Source: a virus
Lineage: Duplodnaviria > Caudoviricetes
Length of the DNA: 53,434 nucleotides
Strand: one strand, 5' to 3'
Virus record (IMG/VR): IMGVR_UViG_3300046658_000024
Coordinates: 1 to 53,434 of that record
Shown here: piece by piece, positions 18,238 to 33,191 of the stretch
Layout of the letters: each line of letters starts with the position of its first letter
Position numbering within the stretch: the first letter of the stretch is position 1
Program-made: the position numbers and the translations under genes
The notes under the pieces: generated by a model
Databases searched by the model: none
The model's input: only the letters and a program-made list of their open reading frames with translations
What the model was told of the DNA's origin: nothing

Positions 18238-18350
18238 TGCGCGTACCCGAGGTACCTGGCGGGCTCATGCCGGATGCCACATGGCTGCTGCCCTCAGGGC
18301 TGCCGCTGACCGGTGAGGAGATATCGCGTCTCCCGGAAGAGCTTTCGTGA
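18237..18350 (+). CDS. Possible 37-aa microprotein
   Basis: ATG overlaps upstream TGA; MRVPEVPGGLMPDATWLLP. Confidence 0.35.
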   Translation: MRVPEVPGGLMPDATWLLPSGLPLTGEEISRLPEELS

Positions 18351-18371
18351 CCACGCACTACAGGAGGACGG

Positions 18372-19061
18372 ATGACGGAGGAAGACGTGGGTAACTACGG
18401 TGCTGGTGTGCTCGGTAGCTGGTCTGGTCTGGGTCACTCGATCTCACCGGTGGACATTCTCCAGACCGTCCATGACTCGGGCGGGATTCTGGCGCTCGGG
18501 GATTCGATCCTGTACGCCACCGTCACCGACCTAGCTACTCGGGCCAACAACCACGGCACGAACTTCGCGGTCAACGCGTGGTCGGGCCGTCCCACAACCC
18601 CGGCGGTGGACTGGCTCCAGAGCAACGTGGTCAACGCCAACCTGATGCCGGGCACACTGCTGATGTGCACGGGGACGAATGACGTGTTCGACCCGTCTGT
18701 TTTCGACCCGGCGGCGGTGGGTCAGGTGGACCAGCTGGAACGTGTGATGGCTTTGGTTGGCCCGGATCTGCCGGTGTGGTGGGTCACGGTGTACGTGGGC
18801 CGGTTCGACGCGACGGCTGCGGTGCGTGAGGCTCAAGTCCGTAACAGCGGCTGGATCAACGGCCAGCTTCACGAGGCTGCGAGCCGACACCCGAACCTGC
18901 ACATCATCGACTGGTACCGGTTCCTCGCTCAAGGCGTCACCAACGGGTCACCGCCGCAGGACTGGCGGATCAGGTCCGGCCTGGTCGACGGGGTGCACAC
19001 CACGGCGTGGGGTTCGGATGCGCGTAACGACCTGATCGAGGCCGCCATCTGGCCGGCGTAA
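18372..19061 (+). CDS. SGNH/GDSL hydrolase
   Basis: Blocks LALGDSI, SGR, GTND, DGVH all present; SD AGGAGG. Confidence 0.9.
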   Translation: MTEEDVGNYGAGVLGSWSGLGHSISPVDILQTVHDSGGILALGDSILYATVTDLATRANNHGTNFAVNAWSGRPTTPAVDWLQSNVVNANLMPGTLLMCTGTNDVFDPSVFDPAAVGQVDQLERVMALVGPDLPVWWVTVYVGRFDATAAVREAQVRNSGWINGQLHEAASRHPNLHIIDWYRFLAQGVTNGSPPQDWRIRSGLVDGVHTTAWGSDARNDLIEAAIWPA

Positions 19062-19070
19062 GGAGCCGCA

Positions 19071-19874
19071 ATGCCTGAACTGTGGATGCCCGGGGTCGTC
19101 CATCATCCGCTGCCCGATTCGGACACCGGAATGCAGACCCAGTACCCGCCGCGGGCTATCGCCCACATCACCTGGGACGCCAAACCGGTCAGCTTCGAGG
19201 CGCTGTTCCGGTACTTCACTGGTGACGGCCAGAGCAAGGCCCCCCACATTCTGTGGGATCCGATCACCGGCAAGATCGGCCAGTTCTACCCGGCCACCTC
19301 GCGCTCAAAGAGCGTGGCGGACAGGGCCGGGGGCACCCGTACCAACCGCACGGGAAGGGTCTGCATCCAGATCGAGGCTCTCCTGTCGCCCGGGAAAACC
19401 ACATACAACGGCCGCGTATGCCAGACCCTGCTCGACACTCCCTGTAAGGGCTGGGATCAGCTCCTGGCTTGGGTGTGTTCGTGGGGTGTGCCCTGCGTGT
19501 GGCCCATGGGGATGCCGGATTTCGCGAGCCACCGTAACGAGCGTGTGTGGGAGGCCCAAGGCGGCTGGTACGGACACTCCCAGGTCCCCGAGAACACGCA
19601 CACCGATCCCGGCCCATGGCCTGCTTTCCCGCCACCGAAGCCGACCTCCGAGAAGGATGACGACATGACCCCCGAGCAGGACGCGCTCCTGACGTACGTC
19701 AGCAAGCAGGTGAAAGCCGTGGCCGACCTGGTGATCCTGCTGGACGGCCGTCGTGCCACCCAGATCCAGGCTCTCGGTACGGCGATCGACGCGAACGTCG
19801 ACGCCGAGACAACCGAGATCGACGGGAAGCTGGCCGAACTGAAGGCCCTACTCGCTGCGAGCCCGGGAAACTGA
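19071..19874 (+). CDS. Endolysin, N-acetylmuramoyl-L-alanine amidase with C-terminal helical domain
   Basis: AHITW, PHILWDP, GHSQVPENTHTDPG zinc-amidase motifs; Pro linker, then helical tail. Confidence 0.9.
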   Translation: MPELWMPGVVHHPLPDSDTGMQTQYPPRAIAHITWDAKPVSFEALFRYFTGDGQSKAPHILWDPITGKIGQFYPATSRSKSVADRAGGTRTNRTGRVCIQIEALLSPGKTTYNGRVCQTLLDTPCKGWDQLLAWVCSWGVPCVWPMGMPDFASHRNERVWEAQGGWYGHSQVPENTHTDPGPWPAFPPPKPTSEKDDDMTPEQDALLTYVSKQVKAVADLVILLDGRRATQIQALGTAIDANVDAETTEIDGKLAELKALLAASPGN

Positions 19875-20431
19875 CTGGGCCGGTCCCGATCCTGGGCCCG
19901 GCCTCCACATCTGTCGCCACCGTGTCCGGCTACATTCGCGCCCAGCTCGACATCCCACCCCGGGAGACGACTTGGTTTCTCGAGGCGTGCGAAGCGCTGT
20001 GGGATGCCGGGGTCACGCACGGGGTTGACCCGGTGGTGCTGATCGCCCAATGCGCATTGGAAACCGGCTGGGGGCAGTTCGGTGGCGTGATCGACAGCTC
20101 GTACAACAACACCTGCGGATTGAAGGCGGCCGGTCGGACCGGTGACACTCCCGAGGATCACGCCCGTTTCGACAGCCTCGCCACGGGCGCCCTGGCTCAT
20201 TGCCAGCACCTGATGGGCTACGCCGGGGTTGTCCCGGGCACGCCGATCGTGGACCCGCGCTGGTCCGGTGTGGCACCCGGGACCGTACGGCACGGCATTG
20301 CCCCGGCCGTGCGTGAGCTCGGCGGCCTAGTGGATCCGAACCAGCCGGAGTTGGGGTCGCGGTGGAATCCGGATCCAGAGTACGGAGTCAAGATCGAGGC
20401 CATCTTCTGGCGTTTGCGCGGCCAAACCTGA
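19865..20431 (+). CDS. GH73 glucosaminidase domain, probably reached by -1 frameshift from the endolysin
   Basis: DPVVLIAQCALETGWG, NNTCGLK; frame open back through G_GGA_AAC (19865-19871); no SD before GTG 19922. Confidence 0.85.
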   Translation, partial: GKLTGPVPILGPASTSVATVSGYIRAQLDIPPRETTWFLEACEALWDAGVTHGVDPVVLIAQCALETGWGQFGGVIDSSYNNTCGLKAAGRTGDTPEDHARFDSLATGALAHCQHLMGYAGVVPGTPIVDPRWSGVAPGTVRHGIAPAVRELGGLVDPNQPELGSRWNPDPEYGVKIEAIFWRLRGQT

Positions 20432-20485
20432 ACCGCGCTGGTGAACGTTCAAGCCTGAGCCACGAAACCTGAACCAGGAGGATCG

Positions 20486-20725
20486 ATGCTCAACCATCTA
20501 CGTCACTTCGAGCCGGCCCGACTCCAGGCTCTGAAGGTCGCAGTGTTCGGCGTCCTGGCCGTGCTCGGCGTGACCGTGCCAGCCGACGTGGACGGCCGGA
20601 TCGCCGCCGGTCTGACCGTCCTCGCCGGAGTGCTGGCGCTGTTCCAGGGGGAGACCACCCGCCGTCGCGTCCGGCCCGCAGTGGAGCACGGTGTACGGGC
20701 TGTTGAACCCGACCGGAGCGAGTAG
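20486..20725 (+). CDS. Holin
   Basis: 79 aa, two hydrophobic segments, basic C-terminus; SD AGGAGG; follows lysins. Confidence 0.8.
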   Translation: MLNHLRHFEPARLQALKVAVFGVLAVLGVTVPADVDGRIAAGLTVLAGVLALFQGETTRRRVRPAVEHGVRAVEPDRSE

Positions 20726-20737
20726 CCGGCGCGTGAT

Positions 20738-21007
20738 GTGACCGATGATCCGTCTCCCCGCGAGCTCGGCCGGTCCATCGACCGAGTCGAGCGGCGAGTC
20801 GATGCGTTGGCGTCGGATCTGGTTGGTCGACGCGAGTACGAGCAGCGCATCAAGGCCATCGAGGACGACATTGCGGAGATCCGCCAGGCGCTCAAGGATG
20901 GCCAGCGGCAGCGCGGTACGGACTGGCGGCAGCTCGCCTACGGTGCCCTCATCCCCGCTCTCCTGTTCGTTGCCTCGGTGCTGGCGGCTTCCCGGGCTGG
21001 TCACTGA
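20738..21007 (+). CDS. Lysis-cassette membrane protein
   Basis: 89 aa; coiled coil followed by a C-terminal TM segment. Confidence 0.75.
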   Translation: MTDDPSPRELGRSIDRVERRVDALASDLVGRREYEQRIKAIEDDIAEIRQALKDGQRQRGTDWRQLAYGALIPALLFVASVLAASRAGH

Positions 21008-21720
21008 TGGCCCATAAGGTCCGCCGGGATCTCCTGCCCGCGCTCGCTGCGGTGGTTGCGGTGCTGTTGCTCGCCGCCGGGTATTGGCAGATCGCCCGCA
21101 TGGGTGCCCGGCTGGACCAAGCGGAGACGGACCGGGCCGCGGTGGCGAAAGCGATGGCGGACGCAAACAGCAACGTGGCGGCCCTCCAGAAGCAGGTCAA
21201 GGGCCTGGGTGGTCAGCCGGTCGCCGGACCGGTGCCGATGCCTGAGCGGGGCGTTCAGGGCGTCCCTGGACCACAAGGTCCGGCTGGTCCGGGGCCGACT
21301 CGGCAGCAGATCGACGACGGGCTCAGCAGGTACCTGACGCTGCATCCACCAGCGCGTGGGGCCAAAGGTGAGCCGGGTTCCAGCGTCACTCAGGCTCAGG
21401 CTGCAACCCTGGTGGCGGCCTACCTACAGACCCATCCGCCAGCCTCAGGCAAGGACGGTCGGGACGGGCAGGATGGTGCCCCCGGTCCAGGACCGACCCA
21501 GCAGCAGATCGCTACTGAGGTAGCGGCGTACCTGCAAGCCCATCCCCCGGCGGCTGGCGAGAAGGGCGACCCGGGCGAGCCTGGCCGTCCTCCGACCGCG
21601 GAGGAGATCTCTGCTGCGGTGTCCTCGTGGATGGCTGGCCACGACCTGTACTGCACGCCCCCGGGGCCGCTAGGGCAGGTCAAGGACGAGCCCTGGCCGT
21701 GCGAGTTCCGATCGAAGTAG
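21007..21720 (+). CDS. Membrane-anchored collagen-like lysis accessory protein
   Basis: N-terminal TM, coiled coil, Gly-X-Y runs, repeated YL..HPPA units, two C-terminal Cys. Confidence 0.75.
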   Translation: MAHKVRRDLLPALAAVVAVLLLAAGYWQIARMGARLDQAETDRAAVAKAMADANSNVAALQKQVKGLGGQPVAGPVPMPERGVQGVPGPQGPAGPGPTRQQIDDGLSRYLTLHPPARGAKGEPGSSVTQAQAATLVAAYLQTHPPASGKDGRDGQDGAPGPGPTQQQIATEVAAYLQAHPPAAGEKGDPGEPGRPPTAEEISAAVSSWMAGHDLYCTPPGPLGQVKDEPWPCEFRSK

Positions 21721-21810
21721 CGCCACCCAGTACGTCTCGCGGTGCCGGTACTGGTAACCCGGCCCGGGATCCCCCGGTACGAGCCAAGACGCCTAAGGTC
21801 GGCGAGACAA

Positions 21811-21848
21811 GGCCCCCGCTCCTCCTTCGGGAGGTCGGGGGCCGTTTT
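21811..21848 (+). terminator. Intrinsic terminator ending the late operon
   Basis: GGCCCCCG..CTCC TTCG GGAG..CGGGGGCC followed by TTTT; between convergent genes. Confidence 0.85.
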
Positions 21849-21862
21849 CGTGTTGTCTGGGG

Positions 21863-22525
21863 TCAGTCCCAGCGGCAGGCTTCCACGATGAGGGTGCCAA
21901 CGTGCCCCGGCTCCGGGGCGGGTTCGACACGGGCGCGAACGTTCACGAAGCCATGCCGGTGAAGGAGGTCGGCCCAGGTGGCGGGTTCATAAGCCCAGCG
22001 GTAGACCCAGGTCTGTCGGCCAGTGAACCCGTTGCCGTACATGCCCTGGGCGCCGTAGCTGCCAGGGACGGTGGGAGCGTGGGAGAACACGAGCCGCCCG
22101 CCGGGGGTGAGCCGCTGACGCAGGAGAGGCAACAGGATCTCGGGATCGGTGAACCACAAGGCGCCCCAGATCGAGTAGATCGCCTCCCACTGCCCTCCGG
22201 TGGTAGCGAGATAGTCGACCACGTCAGCCTGGACGTAGCGGGCGCCGGGAAGATGACCCCAGCGTCGGCGGGCCTGCTCGCACTGGACAGGGGAGATGTC
22301 GATGCCGGTGGCCTCGATTCCCTTGGAGGCCAGGGCGGCGACCGCGTTGCCGCGACCGGAGCCGAGTTCGGCGGCGGTGACCGGGTCACCGAGGAGTTCA
22401 TCACCGGGGCCGTGGCCGTCGTACTGGGTCCAGCCGAAGGCGTTCTTCAGTGCCTCGGCTTCTTGCCCGACCCCGCCCGCATAGTGATCCCAGTAGCCGG
22501 CGTGATCGGTGATCTCCACGTTCAC
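21863..22525 (-). CDS. Class I SAM-dependent methyltransferase
   Basis: ELGSGRG motif I, GIDIS, LTPGGRLVFS; likely GTG start 22525 with SD GGAG. Confidence 0.9.
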   Translation of the reverse strand: MNVEITDHAGYWDHYAGGVGQEAEALKNAFGWTQYDGHGPGDELLGDPVTAAELGSGRGNAVAALASKGIEATGIDISPVQCEQARRRWGHLPGARYVQADVVDYLATTGGQWEAIYSIWGALWFTDPEILLPLLRQRLTPGGRLVFSHAPTVPGSYGAQGMYGNGFTGRQTWVYRWAYEPATWADLLHRHGFVNVRARVEPAPEPGHVGTLIVEACRWD

Positions 22526-22573
22526 GTCATCTCCTTCCGTCGAGCTCGGCATCGGTGTAGCGGCGAGGGTTGG

Positions 22574-22777
22574 TCACGGCTGGATCCTCAAGATGCGGGC
22601 CCCGCGACGGAGCTTGCGGCCAGCACCTTTGCAACGTCGACAGTTCCCGAACGTGTCGGTCAGCTTGCTGTCCTTTTTGCTGCTCCCCTCGCAGAGACCA
22701 CAGCGTCGCCAGGGGTGCCGCCACACGTCATACGCATAGACGGCAACCCCGACGGCGATCAGTGCAGCGAGCGCCAT
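22574..22777 (-). CDS. Small membrane-anchored zinc-finger protein
   Basis: TM followed by CGLCEG and CRRCKG. Confidence 0.75.
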   Translation of the reverse strand: MALAALIAVGVAVYAYDVWRHPWRRCGLCEGSSKKDSKLTDTFGNCRRCKGAGRKLRRGARILRIQP

Positions 22778-22953
22778 CAGACCCTGCGCTCACTCTCGTA
22801 GGACAACGGACCCGGTAGATCGGTCCGGACTCGACGTTTCCGTGAGTTCCACGAAATGGGGCCGACCTTGATGCCCCACGAGGTGAAGCCGCGCTTGCTG
22901 AAGTTGAACCGCAGGATCCCGAGCCGGGCCGTCTTGCGGAAGATGAGGCCCAT
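22777..22953 (-). CDS. DUF4236-like small basic protein
   Basis: MGLIFRKT..LRFNFSKRG, DLPGPLSY; start overlaps upstream stop. Confidence 0.75.
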   Translation of the reverse strand: MGLIFRKTARLGILRFNFSKRGFTSWGIKVGPISWNSRKRRVRTDLPGPLSYESERRV

Positions 22954-23147
22954 CAGAAGTGGATCCCGGACAGAATCTGAGTGATGGTCTGGCCACCCTG
23001 ACGGATCTGGGGAGCAATCGAAGTGCTGGCCAGGTAAAACCCGAACAGTGAGCACACGATCGCATGGCTGACCTTCAGCTCGGACGTACGGACGAGCAGT
23101 ACGACCAGGGCGGCGAGTATGACAATGCCGGAAATGGACAGGATCAT
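22953..23147 (-). CDS. Small two-TM protein of the AICE spread-region type
   Basis: MILSISGIVIL...SHAIVCSLFGFYLASTSIAP, resembling small proteins recalled from pSAM2-like elements. Confidence 0.75.
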   Translation of the reverse strand: MILSISGIVILAALVVLLVRTSELKVSHAIVCSLFGFYLASTSIAPQIRQGGQTITQILSGIHF

Positions 23148-23149
23148 GA

Positions 23150-23275
23150 TTAGACATCCGTCCTGTCGGTAGCACAACGACCGTCATACAGGCCGAACTC
23201 ACGACACCCAGGTCGGGTGCACTCCTGGTCGGGTGGCCTACGTAGTCGAAGCGCGTCGGTGATGGTCGATATCAA
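23150..23275 (-). CDS. 41-aa Cys-containing microprotein
   Basis: TTG start with SD GAGGAGG; MISTITDALRLRRPPDQECTRPGCREFGLYDGRCATDRTDV. Confidence 0.55.
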   Translation of the reverse strand: MISTITDALRLRRPPDQECTRPGCREFGLYDGRCATDRTDV

Positions 23276-23300
23276 GGTCTCCTCCTCAGTGGATTCGCGG

Positions 23301-23474
23301 TCAGAGATCGATGCAGGGGCAGAGCGTCGAGACGGTGCGGTGCACGGTGCCGGTGCTGCGGGAGGCCCGAACGCGTCCGGTGCCGCTGCACAGCCCGCAG
23401 TGGGAATCGGCCTGACTTTCAGGGCCCGGTTCCGCTTGGTCCTGTTCGGTGGGGTCTTGCTTGTTCTTACTCAC
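23301..23474 (-). CDS. 57-aa zinc-finger microprotein
   Basis: GTG 23474 with SD AAAGGA; CGLCSGTG...LCPC. Confidence 0.65.
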   Translation of the reverse strand: MSKNKQDPTEQDQAEPGPESQADSHCGLCSGTGRVRASRSTGTVHRTVSTLCPCIDL

Positions 23475-23574
23475 GGCGTTCCTTTCGGGTCGGACGGCAG
23501 TGCCGTCAAGGGGGTCGGTCCCTCCCGCCGGACCCGGGCTGTGAGTCCCGAGGCCAGCGCCAGCGGCCGACCCG

Positions 23575-23751
23575 TCAGCCGACAGCCCGGCACGTCTGGG
23601 CGTGGGCGTTTGCGGCTTCGCTCTCCAGGCCGTAGGACCCGAACCCGCGCTCACCGCAGGGGCACGTCCAGCTCGCCGCATCCCCATCTGCGGAGTAGTC
23701 CTCGATGCGTTCCAGCTGGAGAATTGCGCCCCCCGCTGTCCGGTATTTCAT
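23575..23751 (-). CDS. 58-aa hypothetical protein
   Basis: ATGA overlap with translocase stop, SD GGAGG; [25 protein letters not shown]. Confidence 0.7.
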
Positions 23752-25748
23752 GAGTCCTCCTTGGTGTCGGTGTTATCGGCGAGCAGCCAACCGGCGGCGC
23801 CGTCCGGGGTGCGGGCAGGCGCGACTTTGCCGGTGGTGACGAGGTCGGCCATACGGCGGTAGATCGTGGCTCGGCTCGCCCCGGTCGCCTCGTTCAACTC
23901 CCGCCAGCCGAGCGCCTCGTCACCAGCAGCGGTAAGTGCCGTTAGAAGCTGCTCGTCCAGTGGAGGCTCTGGCTCAGTGACAGCCGGGGCTGGCGCCGCT
24001 GGCGGGTCGTCCACGACCAGTCGGTCAGTGGCCGTCGGAACGGCACGCTCCTGCTTCGCCGGTTCAGGCGCAGCGAGCCGCTTGGCCAGACGCACAACCG
24101 TGCTGATCTCAGCCTCGCTGACCCAAGCGCCTTGTAGCCGGACCGGCCTGCTCGCACCCATCGGCAGGAACAGGGCATCCCCCTGCCCGGTGAGCTTCTC
24201 AGCTCCCGCGGTGTCGATGATCACCCGGGAGTCGGTAGAGCTCGCGGTGGCGAACGCCAGCCGGGAGGGCACGTTGGCCTTGATCAACCCGGTCACCACG
24301 TCCACGCTCGGCCGCTGGGTGGCCAGCACCAGGTGGATGCCGGCGGCTCTGGCCAGCTGGGTGATCCGCACGATCGCGTCCTCGACGTCGCGCGGCGCCA
24401 CCATCATCAGGTCCGCGAGCTCGTCCACGATGACCAGCAGGTACGGGTACGGCTGGTAGGTGCGCTCACTGCCCGGTGGTGTGGTGAGCTTTCCCGCCCG
24501 CACCGCGGCGTTGAACTCGTCAACGTGCCGGACTCCGGCCGCCGCCATGTCGTCGTAGCGCTGGTCCATCTCTTCGACCACCCACTGGAGCGCGTTGGCG
24601 GCCTTCTTCGCGTTGGTGATGATCGGCATGAGCAGGTGAGGGACACCCGCGTAGGGGGTCAACTCGACCTGCTTCGGGTCGATGAGGATCATCCGCACCT
24701 GTTCCGGGGTGGCCCGGGACAGCACCGACACAAGCAGGGTGTTGATGCACACCGACTTACCGGACCCGGTCGCGCCGGCCACCAGAAGGTGTGGCGTCTT
24801 GGCGAGGTTGGCGCACACGTAGCGGCCATCCATGTCGAGCCCGAGCCCAGCCAGCAGTGGGTGGAGATCCCGGGCCGCCGCCTTGGAGCGGAGCACGTCA
24901 CCCAGGGAGACCACGTCACGGACCCGGTTGGGGAGCTCGATGCCGATCAGCGACTTGCCGGGGATGGTCGGAAGCATCCGCATGTCCTCCACACCCACGC
25001 CGGCCGCCAGGGCGAGGTTCTGGTGAAGCGCGGTGATCTTCTCGACCTTCACGCCCTGACCCGGCCGAACCTCGTAGCGGGTGACGGCAGGGCCACGCGT
25101 GTGGCTGACCACCATGGCGTCAACGCCAAACTGCTTGAACTGCGCGTTGATGGCATCGGTGATCCGGGTGGTCTCTTTGGTGTCGCCCTTGCTGACCTTG
25201 CCAGCGGCTAGGGCATCCACCCCGGCTGGCTGCGGCTTGTCGTGGCCCCCGGCAGGCTTCCCGCCGTCAGTGCCACCCTTCCGCTTGGGTGCCGTCTGGA
25301 CGGCCTCCTCAGCCTCCTGTCCGGCATCCTCGGAGGTCGGCTCGTCACTGCGTCCGGTCCACCACAGGAACCCCACGGCGACAACAGCAGCGATCGGCAA
25401 CGCGGCCGGCATCCGCATCGCGACGTTCGCGCCCACCATGGGCACCGCCAGCACACCGAGAGCTCGACCGAGACGCATCTTCGTACGCGCCCGGGAAATC
25501 TGGTCAGGAGTCGGGATCGGCATCCCCTGCTCCCCGGCCATGAGCCGCTCCACAATCTCTTCATCGCCCACGCTGGCCGTGGTCAGCCACGCCCGGAGCC
25601 GGGCACCAACCAGTTCGGCGCCAGTCCGAAGCTGATTACGGTGTGTGGCAATCCGGGCCCGTAGGCCGGTCGCTACCTCCTGGTCCTCGTCCACGATCGT
25701 CTCCGTCTCAAGTGTCTTCCTCGCGCGCGCGCGTACACGCGCGCGCAT
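23748..25748 (-). CDS. FtsK/SpoIIIE family DNA translocase (TraB-like)
   Basis: TM segments, FtsK alpha domain (GPAVTRYE), Walker A GATGSGKS, Walker B VIVDE, ATQRP, C-terminal wHTH; start may be GTG 25694. Confidence 0.95.
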
Positions 25749-25811
25749 AGGGGGTCAAATTTTGGGTTAGAGGGGGTGAGACGCGGCCCGTGAGACGCCC
25801 CCGTGAGACGC
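25698..25811. repeat. GAGACG repeat cluster, candidate clt/TRS locus
   Basis: GTGAGACGC at 25776, 25790, 25803; inverted CGTCTC at 25698 and 25704; alternating purine/pyrimidine tract 25722-25749. Confidence 0.55.
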
Positions 25812-25906
25812 TCTCCGGCCGCTTACCGACTGTTCACGCTGAGTGAGTGCCAGCCAGCGACCAGGCCGGCCCCCCGTGGGGAGCCGCCCCAGTCGTCGGC
25901 CGGTCC

Positions 25907-26212
25907 TCATCGACCAGCGCCGTTGCCTGAGCCAGCCACGGTGCCGAGCATCGAAGCGACGCCGCCGCCGACAGCACTACCAGCCGTCGCCGCGATCGAG
26001 CCGAACAGCGACCCGGCCATGAGCACGCCAGCAGTGAATGCCGCGAGCACGTGCGGAACCTTGGCCTTGTTCTTCTCGACAGCTCGGTGCAGGTACCAAG
26101 CGATCAGGACAACGACCAGCAACGAGCCGCCGATCGCGCCCGCCGTGCCGCCGGCCGCATCCTGCACGGGTGCGTTCGTGACCACGGTCGCCAGGTTGTG
26201 TACCTGTGACAT
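25907..26212 (-). CDS. Membrane protein (Spd-like)
   Basis: ATG 26212 with SD GGAGG; 101 aa, 2-3 hydrophobic segments; upstream of the translocase. Confidence 0.75.
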   Translation of the reverse strand: MSQVHNLATVVTNAPVQDAAGGTAGAIGGSLLVVVLIAWYLHRAVEKNKAKVPHVLAAFTAGVLMAGSLFGSIAATAGSAVGGGVASMLGTVAGSGNGAGR

Positions 26213-26349
26213 GGGGATTCCTCCTTCCCGTCCTAGTTGGTTCGGTTCTTCTTGCGTGCCGCGACCGGGTTCTGATCCCTGCCGGCCCATGTCCGGAGTC
26301 GAGGCTATTTGTGCAGGTCAGAGCCTTGTTACCTGTCGCGCGTGCTTGG

Positions 26350-26481
26350 TCAGCCGTCTTCGGGCTCGGCGACCAGCGCGGCCTCGACCTCGCAGTGGTC
26401 CTCGGTGCACTTGTGGCCGACGGTCTGGTATGCCTCCTTGGCCATCTCGGCTATGCGGGTGGGGTCCTGCTGCTTGTCCAT
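26350..26481 (-). CDS. 43-aa microprotein
   Basis: SD AGGAGG; MDKQQDPTRIAEMAKEAYQTVGHKCTEDHCEVEAALVAEPEDG. Confidence 0.6.
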   Translation of the reverse strand: MDKQQDPTRIAEMAKEAYQTVGHKCTEDHCEVEAALVAEPEDG

Positions 26482-26618
26482 CTAGCTCTCCTCCTGTTGG
26501 TTCGGTTTGCTTTGCGTGCCCCGACCGGATTCCGACTCCCGCCGGGCTGGCTACCGGGGGCCGGGGCTGGTGTTGCTGTTCATGGCATTCCTTGCGTTTG
26601 TGCAGGTCAGCGCCTTGT

Positions 26619-26744
26619 TTAGCGCCTGGGTGCGGGCACGACGATCACGCCGTCCTGATCGATCTCTGCGTTTCTGGTGCCGGGCTGAATCTTGATCGGG
26701 AGGGGCTGCTCACGCGGGTTCTGCGGAACCTTGACGTGCGGCAT
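26619..26744 (-). CDS. 41-aa microprotein
   Basis: SD AAGGAGGTG; MPHVKVPQNPREQPLPIKIQPG. Confidence 0.6.
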   Translation of the reverse strand: MPHVKVPQNPREQPLPIKIQPGTRNAEIDQDGVIVVPAPRR

Positions 26745-26837
26745 GATGGGTGTCACCTCCTTCTCGTCTCTCGTGGGCGGTTGGGGTGGTGGGGCGGCCC
26801 GGGACCTGGCAGGGTGTGGGGGCCGCCCCGCGCTACA

Positions 26838-26963
26838 TCAAGCGGCGATTGGCTCGACGTAATAGACGCGCTGCTCGCCGGGGTGCTTGGTGCAGGTGGG
26901 CTTCCGCTTCGGCTCGTCCGTGTCGATCTCGCAGGTGCACGACAGGGTGATCCTGTGGGTCAT
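26838..26963 (-). CDS. 41-aa zinc-ribbon-like microprotein
   Basis: SD AGGAGG; LSCTC...CTKH. Confidence 0.6.
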   Translation of the reverse strand: MTHRITLSCTCEIDTDEPKRKPTCTKHPGEQRVYYVEPIAA

Positions 26964-27001
26964 GAATCCTCCTAGGGTTGTGTTTGTGCAGGTCAGGGGC
27001 T

Positions 27002-27073
27002 TTATCGGGTGGCCAGGAAGGCGATCAGGATGAAGAACGGTGTGAGCATCCCGGCCAGGTAGACGAATCGCAT
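27002..27073 (-). CDS. 23-aa single-TM micropeptide
   Basis: SD GAGGAG; MRFVYLAGMLTPFFILIAFLATR. Confidence 0.55.
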   Translation of the reverse strand: MRFVYLAGMLTPFFILIAFLATR

Positions 27074-27102
27074 TTCGGTTCTCCTCAGGCTGTTTGTGCA
27101 GG

Positions 27103-27342
27103 TCAGGACTGGTTTACGGATTCTGGGTCGTACTCGGTGCTCAACAGCCCTACGAGCTCGTCATGCAGCTTGCCGGCCACGTACGCGAGGCCCATCACGA
27201 CCACCGCCGGGCCGGCCAGGTACCGGTGGTCGGTGACCATGGCGACCAGGGCGCCGCACGCAGCGAGCCAGAAGACGGCTGTGATGGCGTAGGGCGCGGC
27301 GTTCAGGACCCAGATCACGAAGCCGGGCAGTCTGATCGTCAT
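27103..27342 (-). CDS. Small membrane protein
   Basis: ATG 27342 with SD AGGAGG; 79 aa, two TM segments. Confidence 0.7.
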   Translation of the reverse strand: MTIRLPGFVIWVLNAAPYAITAVFWLAACGALVAMVTDHRYLAGPAVVVMGLAYVAGKLHDELVGLLSTEYDPESVNQS

Positions 27343-27343
27343 C

Positions 27344-28375
27344 TCACGCCTCCTGGGCGTCGTCGGTGTCGGTCTCACGCTCGGCCTTGAGCGCCGCGAT
27401 GACTTCTTGCGCAGTGCGCGAACTGGTCAGGCCCATCTCTGCCTTGACCGTCGGGCGACCCGGGATGTCGGTGCCCACGGGCCAGCGCTCCCGTGCCTCC
27501 TTGAGACGTGCCTCGAACGGGACCCGGGTCACTCCTGTGGTCCCCCGACGGGCGCGTCGAGTGGTCCGCCTGCGGAAACGGGTCACCGTGCCGCCGGAGT
27601 CACCCGTGGTCACGTCGTCGGAGTCAGCCGCACCCTGCTCGACGGAGTCATCGGCCTCAGCGAACTCGCAAACGGCCTGAGGAGTCAGCTCCCCGATCTG
27701 GTACAGAGCCAGTTCCCGGGGGGTCGCTACCCGCTTCCAGTTGCGGCCGTAACGCTCTTTCATGTCAGCTACGGCGAGGACTCGGGAGCGCTCCCGACGG
27801 AGAGCCTCGGGGTAGGAATGGATCTCCCACAGGATCATCCGGCGCCACAATGACATGGTGGTGAAGGGAGCCAAAACCCACCGTGACCTGCGGATACGGT
27901 CCATTCGGGTGCCAGCGATCATGCCGGCTTGGACGCGCAGGACGTGAGAGCCGACGTCCACGGCAACCACCCACAGGCCAGGCAGGACAGCGTGGGCGAT
28001 GATCCCGACCAGGGACAGGGACTTGTGCCCGAACTCCGGGGCGACGTTCATGCAGATGGTCGCAATGGTCAGTCCCCAAGGGATGACCTTAACTACACGC
28101 CTTTGCATGTTCCGCTTGGCGAGCCAGATTTCGAACAGCGAGAACGCGGCGATGCCCACATCGACGGTGAGGGGCACCATCCAGGCGAGCTTGCCGCAGG
28201 AGGCACCCGCTGCCTCATTGACGCGCACGAAGCTGTTGATGAAGCCGAGGACTCCGAGCAGACCAATGACAGCGACCACTGCGGAGTCAGCCTTGGATCC
28301 GCTTTGGGTCAGGGGGCGCCGGGCCGGTGACCCGTCGGTGTTGGGTCCGGGCTGTTGGGTCAGCTCTGGAGTCAT
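27344..28375 (-). CDS. DUF2637 family Spd-like membrane protein
   Basis: Four N-terminal TMs, AWMVPLTVD, MDRIRRSRWVLAPFTT..LWRRMILWE, C-terminal HTH-like segment; ATG 28375 probably leaderless. Confidence 0.85.
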   Translation of the reverse strand: MTPELTQQPGPNTDGSPARRPLTQSGSKADSAVVAVIGLLGVLGFINSFVRVNEAAGASCGKLAWMVPLTVDVGIAAFSLFEIWLAKRNMQRRVVKVIPWGLTIATICMNVAPEFGHKSLSLVGIIAHAVLPGLWVVAVDVGSHVLRVQAGMIAGTRMDRIRRSRWVLAPFTTMSLWRRMILWEIHSYPEALRRERSRVLAVADMKERYGRNWKRVATPRELALYQIGELTPQAVCEFAEADDSVEQGAADSDDVTTGDSGGTVTRFRRRTTRRARRGTTGVTRVPFEARLKEARERWPVGTDIPGRPTVKAEMGLTSSRTAQEVIAALKAERETDTDDAQEA

Positions 28376-28500
28376 GTGGACACCGTACATCAGTTGCATC
28401 AGTTACCACAACACCATCAGTTGACCCGGTATGCTGAACCGGCGGCAGGAGCAGGCCAACAGTTCCCCCAGTCGCTACGATTTCCACAGTTGCGACAGAA
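28376..28500. promoter_or_regulatory. Divergent promoter/operator region with CATCAGTT direct repeats
   Basis: CATCAGTT at 28388, 28397, 28415 plus variants at 28457 and 28484; minus-strand TACGGT 6 nt before ATG 28375. Confidence 0.6.
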
Positions 28501-28508
28501 GGCGGGTA

Positions 28509-29246
28509 ATGAGCGACGAGCAGCACACCGAACCGGACCAATGGCTACGTGCACACCAGGTCGCACAGCGATGGCGCGTGGATCGGACCTCGGTCTCCCG
28601 CATCGCAGAGCGATACGGCGTGCGGTACCAGGAGCTGCCTCCGGCCAAGAAACGTGACATCGGTGAACGTCGCTACCACCCAGGAGACGTCGAGGACGCT
28701 CTGCGGAAGATGCGGGGCGGAGTCGTTGTCAGCCATGGCATCCAGCGCCTGATCGGCTCGTGGGCTGAAGGTAAGTCCATCTGGGACGTGGACCCCGGCA
28801 CGGCTGGAGTGCCGTGGGATACGGACGTGCTATCGGTCGGCCCCGAACCAATCCCGGATCATGTAGCCCAGAAAATGGACATCCCGGCCGGCTCGGATGT
28901 CCTGGTACGGCGTCGCCGGTATCAAGTCGAAGAGCGATGGATGATGGTGTCCAACTCCTACATCCCGCTCGACCTTGCGGCCGGAACGCAAATAGCCGAA
29001 CCACACCCCGGTCCGGGTGGAATCTGGAAGCGGCTCGAAGAGCTGGGGCACGCTCCGGTGAGCACGCCGGAGACGTTGGCGTCCCGCCAGGCCACGGACG
29101 AGGAAGCGCGGCTGCTGGAGATCGAGCCTGGCTCACCCGTCCTGGAGATCCTGCGGATGGCGTCCACGGCTGAGGGCCGGGTGGTCGACCTGTCGGAGAT
29201 GGCGGCCGTGCCGCGGTACTTCCGACACTACGAACTCAAGATCTAA
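28509..29246 (+). CDS. UTRA-domain regulator (Kor-like) with Xis/MerR-type N-terminal HTH
   Basis: C-terminal UTRA (VLVRRR, SYIP, GPGGI..RLEELGH, EARLLEI.PGSPVL); N-terminal WLRAHQVAQRW..RRYHPGDVE. Confidence 0.85.
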   Translation: MSDEQHTEPDQWLRAHQVAQRWRVDRTSVSRIAERYGVRYQELPPAKKRDIGERRYHPGDVEDALRKMRGGVVVSHGIQRLIGSWAEGKSIWDVDPGTAGVPWDTDVLSVGPEPIPDHVAQKMDIPAGSDVLVRRRRYQVEERWMMVSNSYIPLDLAAGTQIAEPHPGPGGIWKRLEELGHAPVSTPETLASRQATDEEARLLEIEPGSPVLEILRMASTAEGRVVDLSEMAAVPRYFRHYELKI

Positions 29247-29255
29247 GGGGGAACG

Positions 29256-29648
29256 GTGGGGTCTACGGTCGGTGCGCACGCAGTTCGTTTTGGAAAGTAC
29301 ATCCGTGACCGACGTGAGGAATTGAAACTCACACAGGAGGACATTGCGGCACAGCTGGGTGTATCTCAGCCCTTAGTGTCCCGCTGGGAGCAGGGCAAGG
29401 ACTCACCGGTCGACAGGATTGATCACCTCGCACGGATCCTCGAAGTGCCCCTGATCCAGCTAGTGGAGCGCGTCTTTGAGCTGTTCAATCCAGTTGAGCA
29501 AGCGATCATGAACGACGATGCGCTCTTACCCAAGGAGAGGACGGCGATGCTCTCGGCATACGGCGCTCTGACTGGCCGCGATTCGGCCCGTCTTGTCGCA
29601 TCTTTTCAGGCGCAGGTCGAGAGTGAACGACTACGACGGACGTCCTGA
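29256..29648 (+). CDS. XRE-family HTH regulator
   Basis: LTQEDIAAQLGVSQPLVSRWEQG. Confidence 0.9.
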   Translation: MGSTVGAHAVRFGKYIRDRREELKLTQEDIAAQLGVSQPLVSRWEQGKDSPVDRIDHLARILEVPLIQLVERVFELFNPVEQAIMNDDALLPKERTAMLSAYGALTGRDSARLVASFQAQVESERLRRTS

Positions 29649-29660
29649 CCCCACACACCA

Positions 29661-29698
29661 CAGCGCCCCGCCTCCCGGACTGGGATGGCGGGGCGCTG
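29661..29698. terminator. Hairpin between convergent genes
   Basis: CAGCGCCCCGCC / GGCGGGGCGCTG 12-bp stem. Confidence 0.7.
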
Positions 29699-29705
29699 GT
29701 GCGTC

Positions 29706-29921
29706 TCAGCCGTGAACGACGACCCAAAGGAGAGTGAGGACGCCGACTATCAGATTGGCCATGCCGATCAGGTTGGGTATCTGGGCTTGCCTGCGAGCGC
29801 GATACACCAACCTGATCAACTCATCCTTGCCACGTGCAGGTAGCCAATGGCGCGACTGGAACCGGATTCGTCGAACATGCCGTTTCAGCCCAGCAGGCAG
29901 GGCGAGAGCTGGTCTCTTCAT
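29706..29921 (-). CDS. Small basic protein with C-terminal TM
   Basis: ATG 29921; 71 aa. Confidence 0.5.
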   Translation of the reverse strand: MKRPALALPAGLKRHVRRIRFQSRHWLPARGKDELIRLVYRARRQAQIPNLIGMANLIVGVLTLLWVVVHG

Positions 29922-30012
29922 GGCGCGACTGTACTGGCCCGGGGTGGTCACTGTCCGGCGGATACAGTGGAGCGTCCCGCCGCCATGGTTCGACGACGGG
30001 GCGCTCGTGCGG

Positions 30013-30591
30013 TCAGGCCAGCTCGGGTGAGTCACGGGCCGTCTTCCGGATGGGAGCGAGCAGGTTCAGGGCGTTCTTGCTGACCAAGTAGTCCACCAAG
30101 CGTTGTTCGTAGCCCGGATTTGAGTGAGCGACGTTGAAGAGTGGGTTTTTTTCTTGAATTTCCTTGCGTTCGACCCACTCGGCATACTCTCTACTGAACA
30201 AGACGGCAACCCTTCTGTAGGAAACGAAGCGCATCCATGCAGATGACTTCTCATGCGCCTTAGTTCTCGTCTCAAGGTCGTCAGTGACGCCCACATACAG
30301 CAGCAAACGGTCGATATCGAAGTAGTAGTACAGGTAAGTGCGCTGTTCGTACCGCCCAAGCCGGCTTTGGAGAACTTTTGTATAGAAGGCCAGAGTTTCA
30401 TGCTCGTCCATGTCGGATAACGCAGCCTCGGTCAACCATTGGTTATCGATTGGGTCATGGCAGCCACAGTGACAGGGTCCAGGGTTTGGTGGGCGGAAGT
30501 GAAAGTAACCAAGAGCTTTCAGGTGCGCCTCACACACATGGTGCTGATGTCTTTGGCATGGTGGACAGATGGGGGTAGCAGAGTCAGTCAC
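30013..30591 (-). CDS. GIY-YIG nuclease family protein
   Basis: YLYYYF..LLYVGVT..RTKAH..E..EI..NPLFN; Cys/His-rich N-terminus; lower GC. Confidence 0.85.
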   Translation of the reverse strand: MTDSATPICPPCQRHQHHVCEAHLKALGYFHFRPPNPGPCHCGCHDPIDNQWLTEAALSDMDEHETLAFYTKVLQSRLGRYEQRTYLYYYFDIDRLLLYVGVTDDLETRTKAHEKSSAWMRFVSYRRVAVLFSREYAEWVERKEIQEKNPLFNVAHSNPGYEQRLVDYLVSKNALNLLAPIRKTARDSPELA

Positions 30592-31494
30592 GGTCGTACT
30601 CCTCCGTTGGCTTGTGCGGCAACCCGGATCATCGCCACGGGTCTACTGATGGGCCGTCCCGCGTCCTGAGCCACACGCTGTTCGACCTGGATCAGGTACT
30701 CGGCCTTGTCGGAGCCCATGAAGATCAGGGTTTTCTGTGCGTTCCAGTACTCGGTCTGGTCGTAGTCATCGAGGATCTGGGGGTTGGGGGGATCGTCTTC
30801 ATCGTCGTCTTCGTCGCTGGTCGTCGTCGCGCTGGCGCTAGCCGGCCCCGGACTCCCATGAGGAACTGGGATGACGAACTCAGTTACGTACTCGGGTCTA
30901 TTGGTTAGACCGGTGGGGTCTACTGGATAGACCGGTATGGGGTTCCTCGAACCCTTCGGCGTTGCCTTCCTGGGTGTCTACTGGTTGGACCGGTTCAATC
31001 TTGGGCTTGCCGCCGTGGCGGACACACGGACCCTCTCCAGGCGTGGCCGTGCCCCATCCGGCTCGACGCTCACACCGGCCGCCCGTCTTAGTCTCGGTGG
31101 CGCACTGGACTGGCTGATCTCGGCTAACGGCCATGGGGTCCTCTGCTGGCCAGGACAGGTAGTAGGTGCTCTTCCGGCCCGGGGTTCGTCGCACCACGAT
31201 CCAGCCCTCTTGCTCTAGCTCGGCGAGCGAGTCAACGACTGTTTGACGGCTAAGCCCGATGTTGTCCATCAGCGTGGCCACCGCCGGCCAAAGTCGATGG
31301 TCATCCCTGCCGACCGTGTAGATGTACAGCCGCCGGGCGATGTTCCTACGGCTTGCTTCCAGGTGGGTCGTGTAGTCGAACATGAGTACCCACTGAAGCC
31401 CGGGGGTGATGTCCCGTCGGGCTTCAGTGAGGTACTCGAACACCCACTCCAGCGGCATGTACTGGTCGAGTGGGTATCCCCTGGGCTGGCTCAC
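30588..31494 (-). pseudogene. HTH replication-initiator-like gene split by a +1 frame change
   Basis: N part 30898-31494 (WPAVATL..GLSRQTV..SLAELEQEGWI HTH; C..C..C..HGG); start-less C part in the +1 frame ends at 30588, overlapping the next GTG. Confidence 0.65.
30894..30994. repeat. Three 21-bp iteron-like repeats
   Basis: GGGTCTATTGGTTAGACCGGT (30894), GGGTCTACTGGATAGACCGGT (30916), GTGTCTACTGGTTGGACCGGT (30974). Confidence 0.8.
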
Positions 31495-31555
31495 TTCCCA
31501 CCCCCTTCCAGGCCAGCGGGGCGACCCCCGTAGAGGCCGCCCCTTCGGTGATGGG

Positions 31556-31873
31556 TCACTGACGGCCGGCGGGGTCGATCTGGTTGGCGGCCTCGATCAG
31601 GGCCTGGCCGATCTCGCGGGCGCGGTTCGGCGACAGGTCCAAGCAGTCGGCGGCGTCGCGAAGCAGGGACACCAGGGAGGTGACGCCATCGGCGTTGATG
31701 TACGTGCTGGCGTACACCTTGATGTCGTAGTCCTGCTCACCGTCTACCGATGTGGGGAACTCGCGGCCGGCGGCGAAGTGGTGCGTAGTGTTCGGCTCGT
31801 CAGACCGGTGGCTGGCGGTGCACCACGGTGGACAGGTGACGTTCTGCGGGCGGTCACAGGTAATCTGAGACAC
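31556..31873 (-). CDS. DUF6907-like hypothetical protein
   Basis: CPPWCTASH..HH; C-terminal LSPNRAREIGQALIEAA. Confidence 0.7.
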   Translation of the reverse strand: MSQITCDRPQNVTCPPWCTASHRSDEPNTTHHFAAGREFPTSVDGEQDYDIKVYASTYINADGVTSLVSLLRDAADCLDLSPNRAREIGQALIEAANQIDPAGRQ

Positions 31874-31945
31874 GGTTCCTCACCCTCCTACTTAGGGTTG
31901 GGATCTAAGCCCTCACCGGTGGTTGCACACCGGTTCGGGCTGGTC

Positions 31946-31980
31946 AACGGCCTCTCGGGTACCCCCCGGGGGGCCGTTTT
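31946..31980 (+). terminator. Terminator-like hairpin
   Basis: AACGGCC..GGCCGTT stem followed by T run. Confidence 0.55.
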
Positions 31981-32050
31981 CTGTTGCTTCGCCAGTCTTT
32001 CAGATGCGGTTGACTAGCGCAAGTGCGCTAAGTGCGTTTAGTATCTGGTC

Positions 32051-32305
32051 ATGCCCCGCGATGCTGACGAGATGACCCCACGGGAAGTCGCAGACTTCCT
32101 CGACGTGTCCACGACCACGATCCGAAGGTGGGCCAATGACGGCACGCTGACGCCTTGCCGGATCTTCCCTGGCTCCAACTACCGCCGCTACGCGCGGGCT
32201 GACGTCGAGCGGATCAAGCAGCAGATGGAAGCCGGCACCCCGGTCGACAAGCGCAGCAAGCGCCCGAACAAGCCCCAAACCGAGACCCCTGAGGAGGAAT
32301 CGTGA
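32051..32305 (+). CDS. Excisionase/MerR-like HTH protein
   Basis: MTPREVADFLDVSTTTIRRWANDG..GSNYRRY. Confidence 0.9.
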   Translation: MPRDADEMTPREVADFLDVSTTTIRRWANDGTLTPCRIFPGSNYRRYARADVERIKQQMEAGTPVDKRSKRPNKPQTETPEEES

Positions 32306-32475
32306 ACTGCCCCGACTGCCAGCACGAGATCGCTGGCCATACTGCCCGCGTGGGCGAGGAAGGCCGCGTCTGCTACCTATGCGACTGCTACCGGTACAGC
32401 GGGGACCGGGCGTTCCTCGGCAAAGACCTCCTGGCCGAATGGCAGGCCGCGATGCAGGCCAGACTCAGCGCCTAA
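32302..32475 (+). CDS. 57-aa Cys/His zinc-binding microprotein
   Basis: GTG with SD GAGGAGG; CPDCQH..GH..VC..CDC.RY. Confidence 0.7.
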   Translation: MNCPDCQHEIAGHTARVGEEGRVCYLCDCYRYSGDRAFLGKDLLAEWQAAMQARLSA

Positions 32476-32840: not shown

Positions 32841-32845
32841 GGGAG

Positions 32846-33141: not shown

Positions 33142-33160
33142 ACTGAGCCCAGACAGCACG

Positions 33161-33191
33161 AAGCCCCCGGTTTTTAGCCGGGGGCTTTCTT
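33161..33191. terminator. Bidirectional intrinsic terminator
   Basis: AAGCCCCCGG / CCGGGGGCTT stem with T-rich tail, between convergent genes. Confidence 0.85.

Follow-up and report, generated by a model that had tools for sequence, protein, structure and literature searches.

A temperate phage genome, IMG/VR record IMGVR_UViG_3300046658_000024 (Duplodnaviria; Caudoviricetes), carries at positions 21863 to 29246 a block of genes that resembles the transfer operons of actinomycete plasmids and of AICEs (the integrative and conjugative elements of actinomycetes). The stretch analyzed here, referred to as the window, is the entire virus record (53,434 bases, classed as linear, with a reported CheckV completeness of 100%). 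An earlier note on this DNA had placed in the block a DUF2637 gene, about a dozen small open reading frames (ORFs), an FtsK gene, a methyltransferase gene, and a divergent UTRA gene; profile matches (PF10935, PF01580, PF17854, PF08241, and PF07702) put all of them at the positions proposed. From comparison with plasmids and integrating elements, we conclude that the block is probably a plasmid- or AICE-type transfer (tra/spd-like) operon that originated in the Streptosporangiales.

The minus-strand run of ORFs is unbroken from 28399 to 21863, with coding-type GC content at third codon positions (GC3) throughout. Its order is DUF2637, six small ORFs, a 666-amino-acid (aa) FtsK-family protein (here referred to as the pump), six further small ORFs, and a class I S-adenosylmethionine (SAM)-dependent methyltransferase. 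The genes of the block and its border are as follows.

29256-29648, plus strand: XRE-family helix-turn-helix (HTH) protein, directly 3' of the UTRA gene (PF13560 and PF01381, both 1.4e-11)
28431-29246, plus strand: UTRA regulator, divergent from the operon in a Kor-like position (PF07702, 2.3e-22, 79.8 bits)
27344-28399, minus strand: DUF2637 membrane protein, first gene of the operon (PF10935, 1.1e-17, 64.9 bits against a cut-off of 22.8)
27103-27378, minus strand: small membrane ORF, 91 aa from GTG, an internal ATG start being probable (GC3 0.88, hydrophobic segment)
27002-27073, minus strand: predicted ORF for a 23-aa hydrophobic peptide (GAGGAG ribosome-binding site, hydropathy)
26838-26963, minus strand: 41-aa Cys-containing ORF (GC3 0.93, AGGAGG ribosome-binding site)
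26619-26756, minus strand: 45-aa ORF (GC3 0.82)
26350-26481, minus strand: 43-aa ORF (GC3 0.93)
25907-26212, minus strand: tm101, a 101-aa protein with two transmembrane (TM) segments, conserved neighbor upstream of the pump
23748-25748, minus strand: the pump, FtsK-family double-stranded DNA (dsDNA) translocase, 666 aa (PF01580, 7e-65; PF17854, 1.5e-22)
23575-23751, minus strand: 58-aa Cys-containing ORF whose start overlaps the pump stop (GC3 0.79, AGGAGG ribosome-binding site)
23301-23480, minus strand: possible small CxxC...CxC ORF, start uncertain (frame GC3 profile, translation)
23150-23275, minus strand: 41-aa Cys-containing ORF (TTG start, GAGGAGGAG ribosome-binding site)
22953-23177, minus strand: small membrane ORF, 74 aa (GC3 0.74, hydrophobic segment score 3.03)
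22777-22953, minus strand: 58-aa DUF4236-like ORF (frame GC3 0.72-0.85)
22574-22777, minus strand: 67-aa protein with a TM segment and a double-CxxC, zinc-ribbon-like pattern
21863-22552, minus strand: class I SAM-dependent methyltransferase, closing the operon (PF08241, 5.4e-11; also PF13649 and PF08242)

The 12 small ORFs (23 to 101 aa) have coding-type GC3 or good ribosome-binding sites. Five encode a hydrophobic segment, five or six are Cys-rich, and one (~23301-23480) is uncertain. The leader of the 43-aa ORF at 26350-26481 is paralogous to that of the next gene (a 50-nucleotide [nt] repeat, D6). An ESM Atlas feature search with the 58-aa ORF at 22777-22953 returned DUF4236 clusters for 30 of 30 matches (best score, 0.92), a lead that is not based on hidden Markov models. 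The 67-aa zinc-ribbon-like protein is 33% identical over 67 aa to a stretch just past the TraB-type gene of a Nonomuraea AICE (E value, 1.4e-6) and gave no alignment with the RRQRL zinc protein of another locus (L003). The SAM methyltransferase is a probable cargo gene. Scanning the block for promoters and terminators yielded matches at chance level only.

Membership of the pump in the FtsK/SpoIIIE superfamily is clear (219 bits to PF01580 and 80.2 bits to PF17854), and it matches the solved FtsK structure 2IUU at 9e-104 over residues 198-562. Its motor motifs are intact, with the Walker A sequence GATGSGKS and the sequence VDELADL invariant in the pump alignment. The alpha/beta motor by itself is 68-72% identical to chromosomal FtsK; among the best 120 of 8,000 scored database proteins, nearly all are chromosomal FtsK proteins of Actinomycetota, 62-71% identical over the 51-69% of the query that makes up the motor. 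Outside the motor, the protein is different. It has no match to PF13491 (4TM) or PF09397 (gamma), and it scores 346.9 bits against the chromosomal FtsK equivalog NF007615, for which the cut-off is 1566. Three metagenome proteins (P0014, P0018, and P0112) align with 93-97% of the pump at 49-50% identity and are also without gamma. All four have in common an N-terminal region with a hydrophobic anchor and a C-terminal EPPxxEQLxTxL...TxYRxMAxLV signature; the hydrophobic segment of the pump lies at residues 109-127. AlphaFold2 models the pump C-terminus as a winged helix of three helices and a hairpin (pLDDT, 84.9), whose fold neighbors are DNA-binding domains of the Zur/Fur/MarR type. The pump is an FtsK-family translocase with a new N-terminal region and a C-terminal winged helix in the place of the gamma domain.

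A profile built from these four proteins aligns with pIJ101 Tra by hhalign over 307 columns, from the motor into the C-terminal HTH (probability, 97.9%; E value, 3.6e-13), and the predicted succession of membrane-associated N-terminus, motor, and C-terminal winged HTH is that of TraB. Given this alignment and the motor's identity to chromosomal FtsK, the pump, as judged from its sequence, combines TraB architecture with an FtsK-proper motor. A different arrangement is found in two element pumps, one of Spirillospora (L066 7592-10537) and one of Actinomadura (P0003), in which an extra, HTH_IclR-like winged helix is followed by gamma, giving two tandem DNA-reading domains.

The DUF2637 protein has four hydrophobic segments. 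Its identity to its counterparts is 42% for the Nonomuraea AICE and 39%, over 285 aa, for an 18-kb AICE-like plasmid of Streptomyces; its closest matches are proteins of Nonomuraea and Spirillospora, and it is close also to those of two AICE-like elements with a TraB-type pump. Spd proteins have no common sequence signature and are defined by loss of pock formation; they are small membrane proteins encoded in overlapping operons near tra. In membrane character and gene context, the small proteins of the operon would fit this description. The divergent regulator has the UTRA domain, with matches in the PDB confined to residues 127-268 and the first 125 aa left without an assigned domain. A GntR-family assignment, as the earlier note's parallel with Kor control would imply, is not supported: Pfam detected no GntR HTH, and the protein is without the two-domain make-up of the GntR/HutC-type Kor/TraR repressors. 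Its true start is possibly M27, at 28509.

The gene order of the block recurs on plasmids and integrating elements. Searching one genome per species with the pump C-terminal domain, we found six loci (L062-L067), three in Actinomadura and one each in Spirillospora, Actinoallomurus, and a metagenome-assembled genome. In all six, the gene directly upstream of that for the pump encodes a homologue of tm101, as is also the case in the provirus G001 (described below) and on the plasmid pAGRA3207_1. A UTRA regulator gene is found further upstream in four of the six and also adjoins the operon of plasmid pSROS01, and in three of the six a homologue of the right-arm gene at 42951-43457 lies in between. 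The virion proteins of the window have a match in none of these loci. In L063 and L066, the latter from Spirillospora, a pump with both winged helix and gamma is followed by a DnaB_N-DUF3987 replicase gene and, in L063, then by a tyrosine integrase gene. Plasmid pAGRA3207_1 of Actinomadura graeca has a GntR gene divergent from small ORFs, a tm101 homologue, and FtsK, together with a tyrosine integrase and ParA, and pSROS01 of Streptosporangium roseum has a GntR gene divergent from BldC, DUF2637, SsgA, small ORFs, and FtsK. The Nonomuraea AICE comprises GntR-UTRA, DUF2637, TraB-type, Prim-Pol, and tyrosine integrase genes. Across Actinomadura, Spirillospora, and Nonomuraea, elements with integrase and replicase genes and without virion genes thus share a layout of regulator, DUF2637 or small TM protein, small ORFs, and FtsK.

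It is this synteny with plasmids and genome loci, together with the matches of the DUF2637 and zinc-ribbon-like proteins in AICE-like elements, that identifies the block as a probable transfer operon. The nearest relatives are in the Streptosporangiales and not in Streptomyces, and the host is most likely a filamentous actinomycete of that order. The description of the module as Streptomyces-type is therefore borne out in that it is homologous to and syntenic with actinomycete plasmid and element operons, and needs correcting as to the group of bacteria. Two genes of the right arm also have homologues in such transfer regions: that at 42951-43457 beside tm101 and the pump in L063, L065, L066, and pAGRA3207_1, and that at 45039-45329 beside DUF2637 in the Nonomuraea AICE and in an IMG/VR locus (L006). 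The phage therefore has more than one block in common with plasmids and AICEs.

Around the operon, the window encodes a full virion module and other phage functions.

69-527, plus strand: small terminase subunit (TerS), weak match
511-2124, plus strand: large terminase subunit (TerL)
2143-3543, plus strand: portal
3748-4692, plus strand: protease
5368-6312, plus strand: HK97-type major capsid protein
12339-15203, plus strand: tape measure
19071-19874 and 19922-20431, plus strand: two endolysins
38103-39539, plus strand: large serine integrase, the sole integrase (PF00239, 1.3e-21; PF07508, 2.4e-11)
52710-53198: HNH endonuclease, at the right end of the genome, adjoining the left-end terminase genes

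Two large tail proteins are also encoded on the plus-strand left arm (one at 16591-18237). TerS, TerL, portal, protease, major capsid, tape measure, tail, and endolysin genes are all open frames, in agreement with the claim that the virion genes are intact, and the terminase, portal, protease, HK97-type capsid, tape measure, lysins, and integrase together define a tailed temperate phage. The serine integrase is a requirement for any cycle of excision, transfer, and integration. Only loosely does the block lie between the lysis cassette and this gene, as had been claimed, for 8.9 kb separate the integrase from the block on its left. Association of HNH and terminase genes is typical of cos phages; with the HNH gene at the right end adjoining the left-end terminase genes, the phage is probably cos-type and the record in virion orientation. 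The nearest matches of TerL, ~60% identical, are in Arthrobacter, Gordonia, and Streptomyces phages.

Three sets of short direct repeats lie in or between the genes of the operon.

26087-27106, minus strand: set A, 8-mer ACCTGCAC, six copies (26087, 26311, 26600, 26890, 26986, and 27096, within 1,017 nt)
27596-28374, minus strand: set B, TGACTCC, six copies on the DUF2637 coding strand, three at exact 24-nt spacing (27596, 27620, and 27644)
25776-25811, minus strand: set C, GCGTCTCAC, three tandem copies at intervals of 13-14 nt, in the spacer immediately upstream of the gene for the pump

Within set A, the exact 14-mer CTGACCTGCACAAA recurs in four intergenic spacers (26308, 26597, 26983, and 27093), each time just 5' of the ribosome-binding site; four copies compare with 0.21 expected, and none of 100 shuffles reached four. 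The 8-mer occurs eight times in the window (2.39 expected), seven of these on the minus strand. A reading of set A as a sigma-70-type promoter was dropped, as its spacing yields, by eye, no -10 element. For set B, 6 of the 12 window copies of TGACTCC fall within the 1056-nt DUF2637 gene, a count that no synonymous-codon shuffle reached in 1000. The word is used in two reading frames, and its four same-frame copies force T at the third codon position. The window-wide count of the set C word is unexceptional (4 of 100 shuffles reached four), and it is the clustering within 36 nt that is notable.

Arrays of other words occur in related operons. The 3' half of the DUF2637 gene of pSROS01 (L104 7880-8277) holds 15 copies of CCGTACG and that of phage VWB gp24 (L002 8647-9056) 14 copies of CGCACCC, in both cases a count reached by none of 1000 synonymous shuffles; these may be either pump-docking arrays or peptide repeats. 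The ~140-nt spacer between tm101 and FtsK in provirus G001 (L021 3371-3460) is full of direct repeats, including four copies of CCTGTTCC and three of CCCTTCCC. In clt, TraB proteins recognize 8-bp direct repeats (Thoma et al. 2015), and on this basis sets A and B are candidate loading sites for the pump; set C is a candidate operator. The words ACCTGCAC, TGACTCCG, and GCGTCTCAC are accordingly offered as candidate binding sites for the pump C-terminal domain, at residues ~590-666, or the UTRA regulator. Some arrays, and that of VWB most of all, could have arisen from tandem peptide repeats or by recent slippage.

Among phages, the module was found most completely in one distant relative. Provirus G001 (59.5 kb, 72% GC, 98% complete) has an HK97 capsid protein, a portal protein, and two tail proteins 28-34% identical to those of the window and, on the strand opposite to the tail genes, a module of XRE regulator, DUF2637, a homologue of tm101, and an FtsK that has all three of the alpha, beta, and gamma domains. 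Its DUF2637-tm101-FtsK module lies in the same position as that of the window. In two further IMG/VR records (G002 and G003), of which one has terminal repeats, an FtsK-proper gene lies no more than 3 kb from a DUF2637 gene; searches of both for the capsid and portal families found neither, and a PF10145 tape-measure search of five viral records gave no match and is uninformative. Scanning IMG/VR with the whole-pump alignment returned 55 loci, mostly motor-only, none of which spans the N- and C-terminal regions, and scanning it with the tm101 alignment returned G001 only. A metagenome scan with the pump C-terminal domain gave at least two weak loci. Among cultured phages, DUF2637 had matches in VWB and Gilgamesh only, and a TraB-type protein of the Nonomuraea AICE, used as a query against cultured phages, found Bacillus and Staphylococcus phages only and no actinophage. 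Proteins that are FtsK-like were matched in 378 phage records. At the DNA level, megablast of the block against 50,697 phage records gave no match.

The synteny of the operon, the intact motor of the pump, its anchor and winged helix, the membrane partners, the divergent regulator, and the oriented repeats together suggest that the operon could move phage dsDNA between hyphal compartments or mycelia, as Tra and Spd proteins move plasmids; we regard this as about an even bet, and virion-free spread of the phage as plausible. In such a process, the pump would form a hexameric pore at a hyphal contact or cross-wall, be loaded by its winged helix onto phage dsDNA at one of the repeat sets, and push the excised or replicating phage genome into the adjacent compartment or mycelium, with the small membrane proteins aiding passage across septa. 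In the recipient, the serine integrase or lytic growth would establish the phage. The UTRA regulator would hold the operon off until a signal, in the manner of a Kil-Kor pair. A bolder version, which we put forward tentatively and think doubtful in full, holds that the phage has a second, capsid-free route of infection in which an FtsK-derived pump acting at phage-borne 8-mers drives the 53-kb genome through hyphal contacts or cross-walls, joining the lifestyles of a virus and an AICE, and that the pump family is a living intermediate between FtsK and TraB.

Several observations weigh against transfer by this operon. The pump is not a TraB, as the Streptomyces-type module of the earlier note would imply: its score against the NCBIfam model plasmid_TraB (NF041214) is 68.9 bits, for a cut-off of 800, it is only ~23-25% identical to two AICE TraB-type proteins, and its motor is FtsK-proper. 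The profile of the DUF2637 protein has no detectable relation (probability, 1%) to pIJ101 SpdB, the sole Spd protein compared. A maximum-likelihood tree of 37 motors, from which were left out the two TraB-type proteins (no BLAST-alignable motor), L067 (match in two pieces), and 41 of the 55 IMG/VR loci, gives the pump a long branch (0.46) adjacent to P0003 and to the clade of chromosomal FtsK; it stands apart from its full-length relatives, and no well-supported clade contains it. Not every one of the three differing repeat sets can be the loading site, two of five DUF2637 genes tested (both AICE genes) had no repeat array, and no comparable repeat family was seen in L062, L063, and L066. Phage VWB has a DUF2637 gene (gp24) without a recognizable pump, the next gene, gp25, having no Pfam match. 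None of 34 IMG/VR loci that share the endolysin has a pump, DUF2637, or tm101 gene within 10 kb. Neither megablast nor IMG/VR scans with the DUF2637 protein and the tail protein at 16591-18237 found a close phage relative, and so a single, distant provirus is what attests conservation of the module in phages. For the related plasmids and elements, too, transfer is a prediction from gene content, and no experiment on any member of the pump subfamily was found in the literature searched (full text, with few subscription journals covered).

We considered whether the block might be foreign to the phage or, as the earlier note had allowed, an artifact. That the record is a chimera of a phage and a plasmid or AICE fragment is conceivable in view of its metagenomic derivation but very improbable. 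A public soil run holds 99% of the words sampled from the window, and Logan contigs of that run bridge both module borders (18197-24334 and 28247-34682) with no differences and at a flat depth of 8.6-9.6; the run may be the source sample, making this an independent assembly and not an independent sample. No RNA dataset is listed among the sequencing runs. The sole contig breaks are at 24312-24700, within the most conserved part of the motor, where the depth reaches 25.5, a rise to be expected if words in this part are shared with the ftsK genes of other organisms. Since the contigs bridge both borders and the N- and C-terminal parts of the pump, which the break separates, are colinear with one and the same rare subfamily (P0014, P0018, and P0112), with phage genes flanking on both sides, we conclude that the feature is real and soundly assembled. 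Nor is the block a separately inserted AICE. An AICE unites Int, Rep, and Tra in one integrated element (Ghinet et al. 2011); the window has the Tra component, an FtsK/SpoIIIE domain, together with a full virion module, where an AICE is a small, virion-free, att-bounded element. Six-frame searches of the window found no tyrosine integrase and no match to Prim-Pol and DUF3987, the two replicase families profiled (AICE replication proteins being of the RepSA, RepAM, or Prim-Pol type), and no direct repeats bracket the block at 21.8 kb and 29.2 kb, which confirms that a second integrase and flanking att repeats are lacking. With the replicase and integrase typical of such elements missing, only the transfer module is in the phage. 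The same fact favors a reading of the operon as a hitchhiking remnant, a transfer piece of a plasmid or AICE acquired by illegitimate recombination and now neutral or decaying cargo with no role in phage spread, as do the absence of close phage relatives carrying it and a GC content of 0.66-0.70 over 20-26 kb, compared with 0.61-0.65 in the phage arms, which is compatible with fairly recent acquisition and is a further point against an established role in transfer. Mosaic exchange is also indicated by the two right-arm genes with plasmid or element homologues (42951-43457 and 45039-45329). Against decay, each of the ~15 ORFs is uninterrupted and shows coding GC3 and ribosome-binding sites, no motor motif is broken, the repeat words persist in spite of codon preference, and the distantly related G001 retains the DUF2637-tm101-FtsK trio in the same place; we consider a mere remnant unlikely.

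Two other functions for the operon were weighed. If the pump acted like FtsK/SpoIIIE at host septa, it would partition phage or prophage DNA or resolve dimers without cell-to-cell transfer, as its 68-72% motor identity to chromosomal FtsK and the frequency in other phages of FtsK-like genes without membrane partners would allow. Cultured phages such as the Omegavirus (cluster J) mycobacteriophages likewise place an FtsK alpha/beta motor, ~50-53% identical, in a temperate actinophage, an example being LittleE gp198. This last protein, however, has 442 aa and little beyond the motor, with no DUF2637 or tm101 neighbors and no divergent UTRA regulator, whereas in the window the KOPS-reading gamma and the 4TM domain have been replaced and the gene is part of an operon of plasmid type, together with DUF2637, tm101, and a Kor-like regulator. 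A purely intracellular role in segregation therefore seems rather unlikely to us. The block could also be a defense or exclusion system in which a membrane pump and a methyltransferase act on incoming foreign DNA. PADLOC matched the methyltransferase to mad2 (4.6e-16) and the pump to SspH (6.4e-57) and mad8 (2.1e-33), and a central, leftward position is typical of actinophage genes expressed in lysogeny. These matches, however, extend over generic domains only (methyltransferase and FtsK/HerA ATPase), 8 of the 10 scanned proteins have no PADLOC match and no other MADS or Ssp component is among them, and the whole layout matches plasmid transfer operons, making defense quite improbable.

Elsewhere in the window, GC content ranges from 0.57 to 0.70, no tRNA was found, and Rfam, applied at the gathering threshold over the whole window, gave 0 matches. 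A 16-G run at 39554-39569, 15 nt past the serine integrase stop codon, could be an assembly-prone homopolymer or a piece of an attP or terminator region. Across the start codon of the same gene lies a 25-nt inverted repeat (38036-38060 and 38099-38123; 84% complementary, 38 nt apart), a candidate attP core or operator. The right arm includes YqaJ exonuclease, RecT, two DNA methylase, and HNH genes; the two DNA methyltransferases (46608-47837 and 51455-52513; N6/N4 type and C5 type) have probable anti-restriction functions. A perfect 34-nt direct repeat (34653-34686 and 35276-35309) flanks a 162-aa ORF without Pfam match (34777-35265), an arrangement suggestive of a small cassette insertion or of terminator duplication. 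Directly downstream of an HTH_17 excisionase-like gene (32051-32305), a series of small Cys-rich ORFs (32302-32475, 32541-32780, and 32846-33001) is preceded by three leaders that are paralogous to one another (32281-32852; 28-70 nt, 75-90% identical). The lowest-GC stretch of the genome, bin 30001-31000 (GC, 0.566), carries a 192-aa ORF (30013-30591) with a GIY-YIG match below threshold (20.9 bits, compared with 22.6) and may be an insert of the homing-endonuclease kind.

Should the operon function as is believed of its plasmid relatives, phages of filamentous actinomycetes could spread and lysogenize without lysis or receptors, and the view of host range, of plaque containment in mycelia, and of gene flow in antibiotic-producing soil bacteria would have to be revised. 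The bolder proposal would, if true, let the pump family show how septal DNA pumps were recruited to conjugation. The subfamily in any case offers a tractable test of re-aiming an FtsK motor by swapping its DNA-reading domain, with candidate words in the same operon. In the literature searched, we found no paper on an integrating phage with such an operon, on this pump subfamily, or on the function of the Streptosporangiales transfer operons.

The Streptomyces system consists of TraB, clt, Spd, and a GntR-type repressor (Thoma et al. 2015). As that account and others present them, the TraB/Tra-Spd-TraR/KorA systems of pSVH1 and pIJ101 resemble the operon described here in relying on one FtsK-like dsDNA pump, membrane-associated and ending in an HTH (predicted for the window) that reads direct 8-bp repeats (candidates in the window); in their small overlapping spd genes for membrane proteins, to which the small ORFs would correspond in context; and in a divergent repressor forming a Kil-Kor pair, the UTRA regulator being in a like position. 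The window differs in a motor far closer to chromosomal FtsK, a regulator without GntR HTH, and another host order. With chromosomal FtsK of Actinomycetota, the pump shares the alpha and beta domains, and it differs in being without FtsK_4TM and gamma and in its new N-terminal region and C-terminal winged helix. Closer likenesses are found, in sequence records, in Streptosporangiales plasmids and elements (pSROS01, pAGRA3207_1, Actinomadura soli, and Spirillospora sp.), with a divergent regulator, DUF2637 and/or tm101, small ORFs, and an FtsK-proper-type pump whose motor is 63-66% identical and is followed by the same extra winged helix. Unlike the window, they carry ParA or a replicase plus a tyrosine integrase and no virion genes, and the pump of L066 keeps gamma after the winged helix, where that of the window ends.

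A hybrid of phage and conjugative element is not new in kind: for Streptomyces pZL12/phiZL12, citing papers speak of a plasmid-phage that has a tra locus (Zhong et al. 2010, J Bacteriol 192:3747). It stands as an experimental precedent and, as the window probably does, unites virion genes and a conjugal tra locus on one replicon. The two are set apart in that pZL12 is reportedly a ~90-kb autonomous plasmid prophage with ParAB, whereas the phage of the window has 53 kb and a serine integrase. The present case adds a pump of FtsK-proper type whose DNA-reading domain has been swapped, an integrating life style, a connection with the Streptosporangiales, and a set of concrete repeat candidates.

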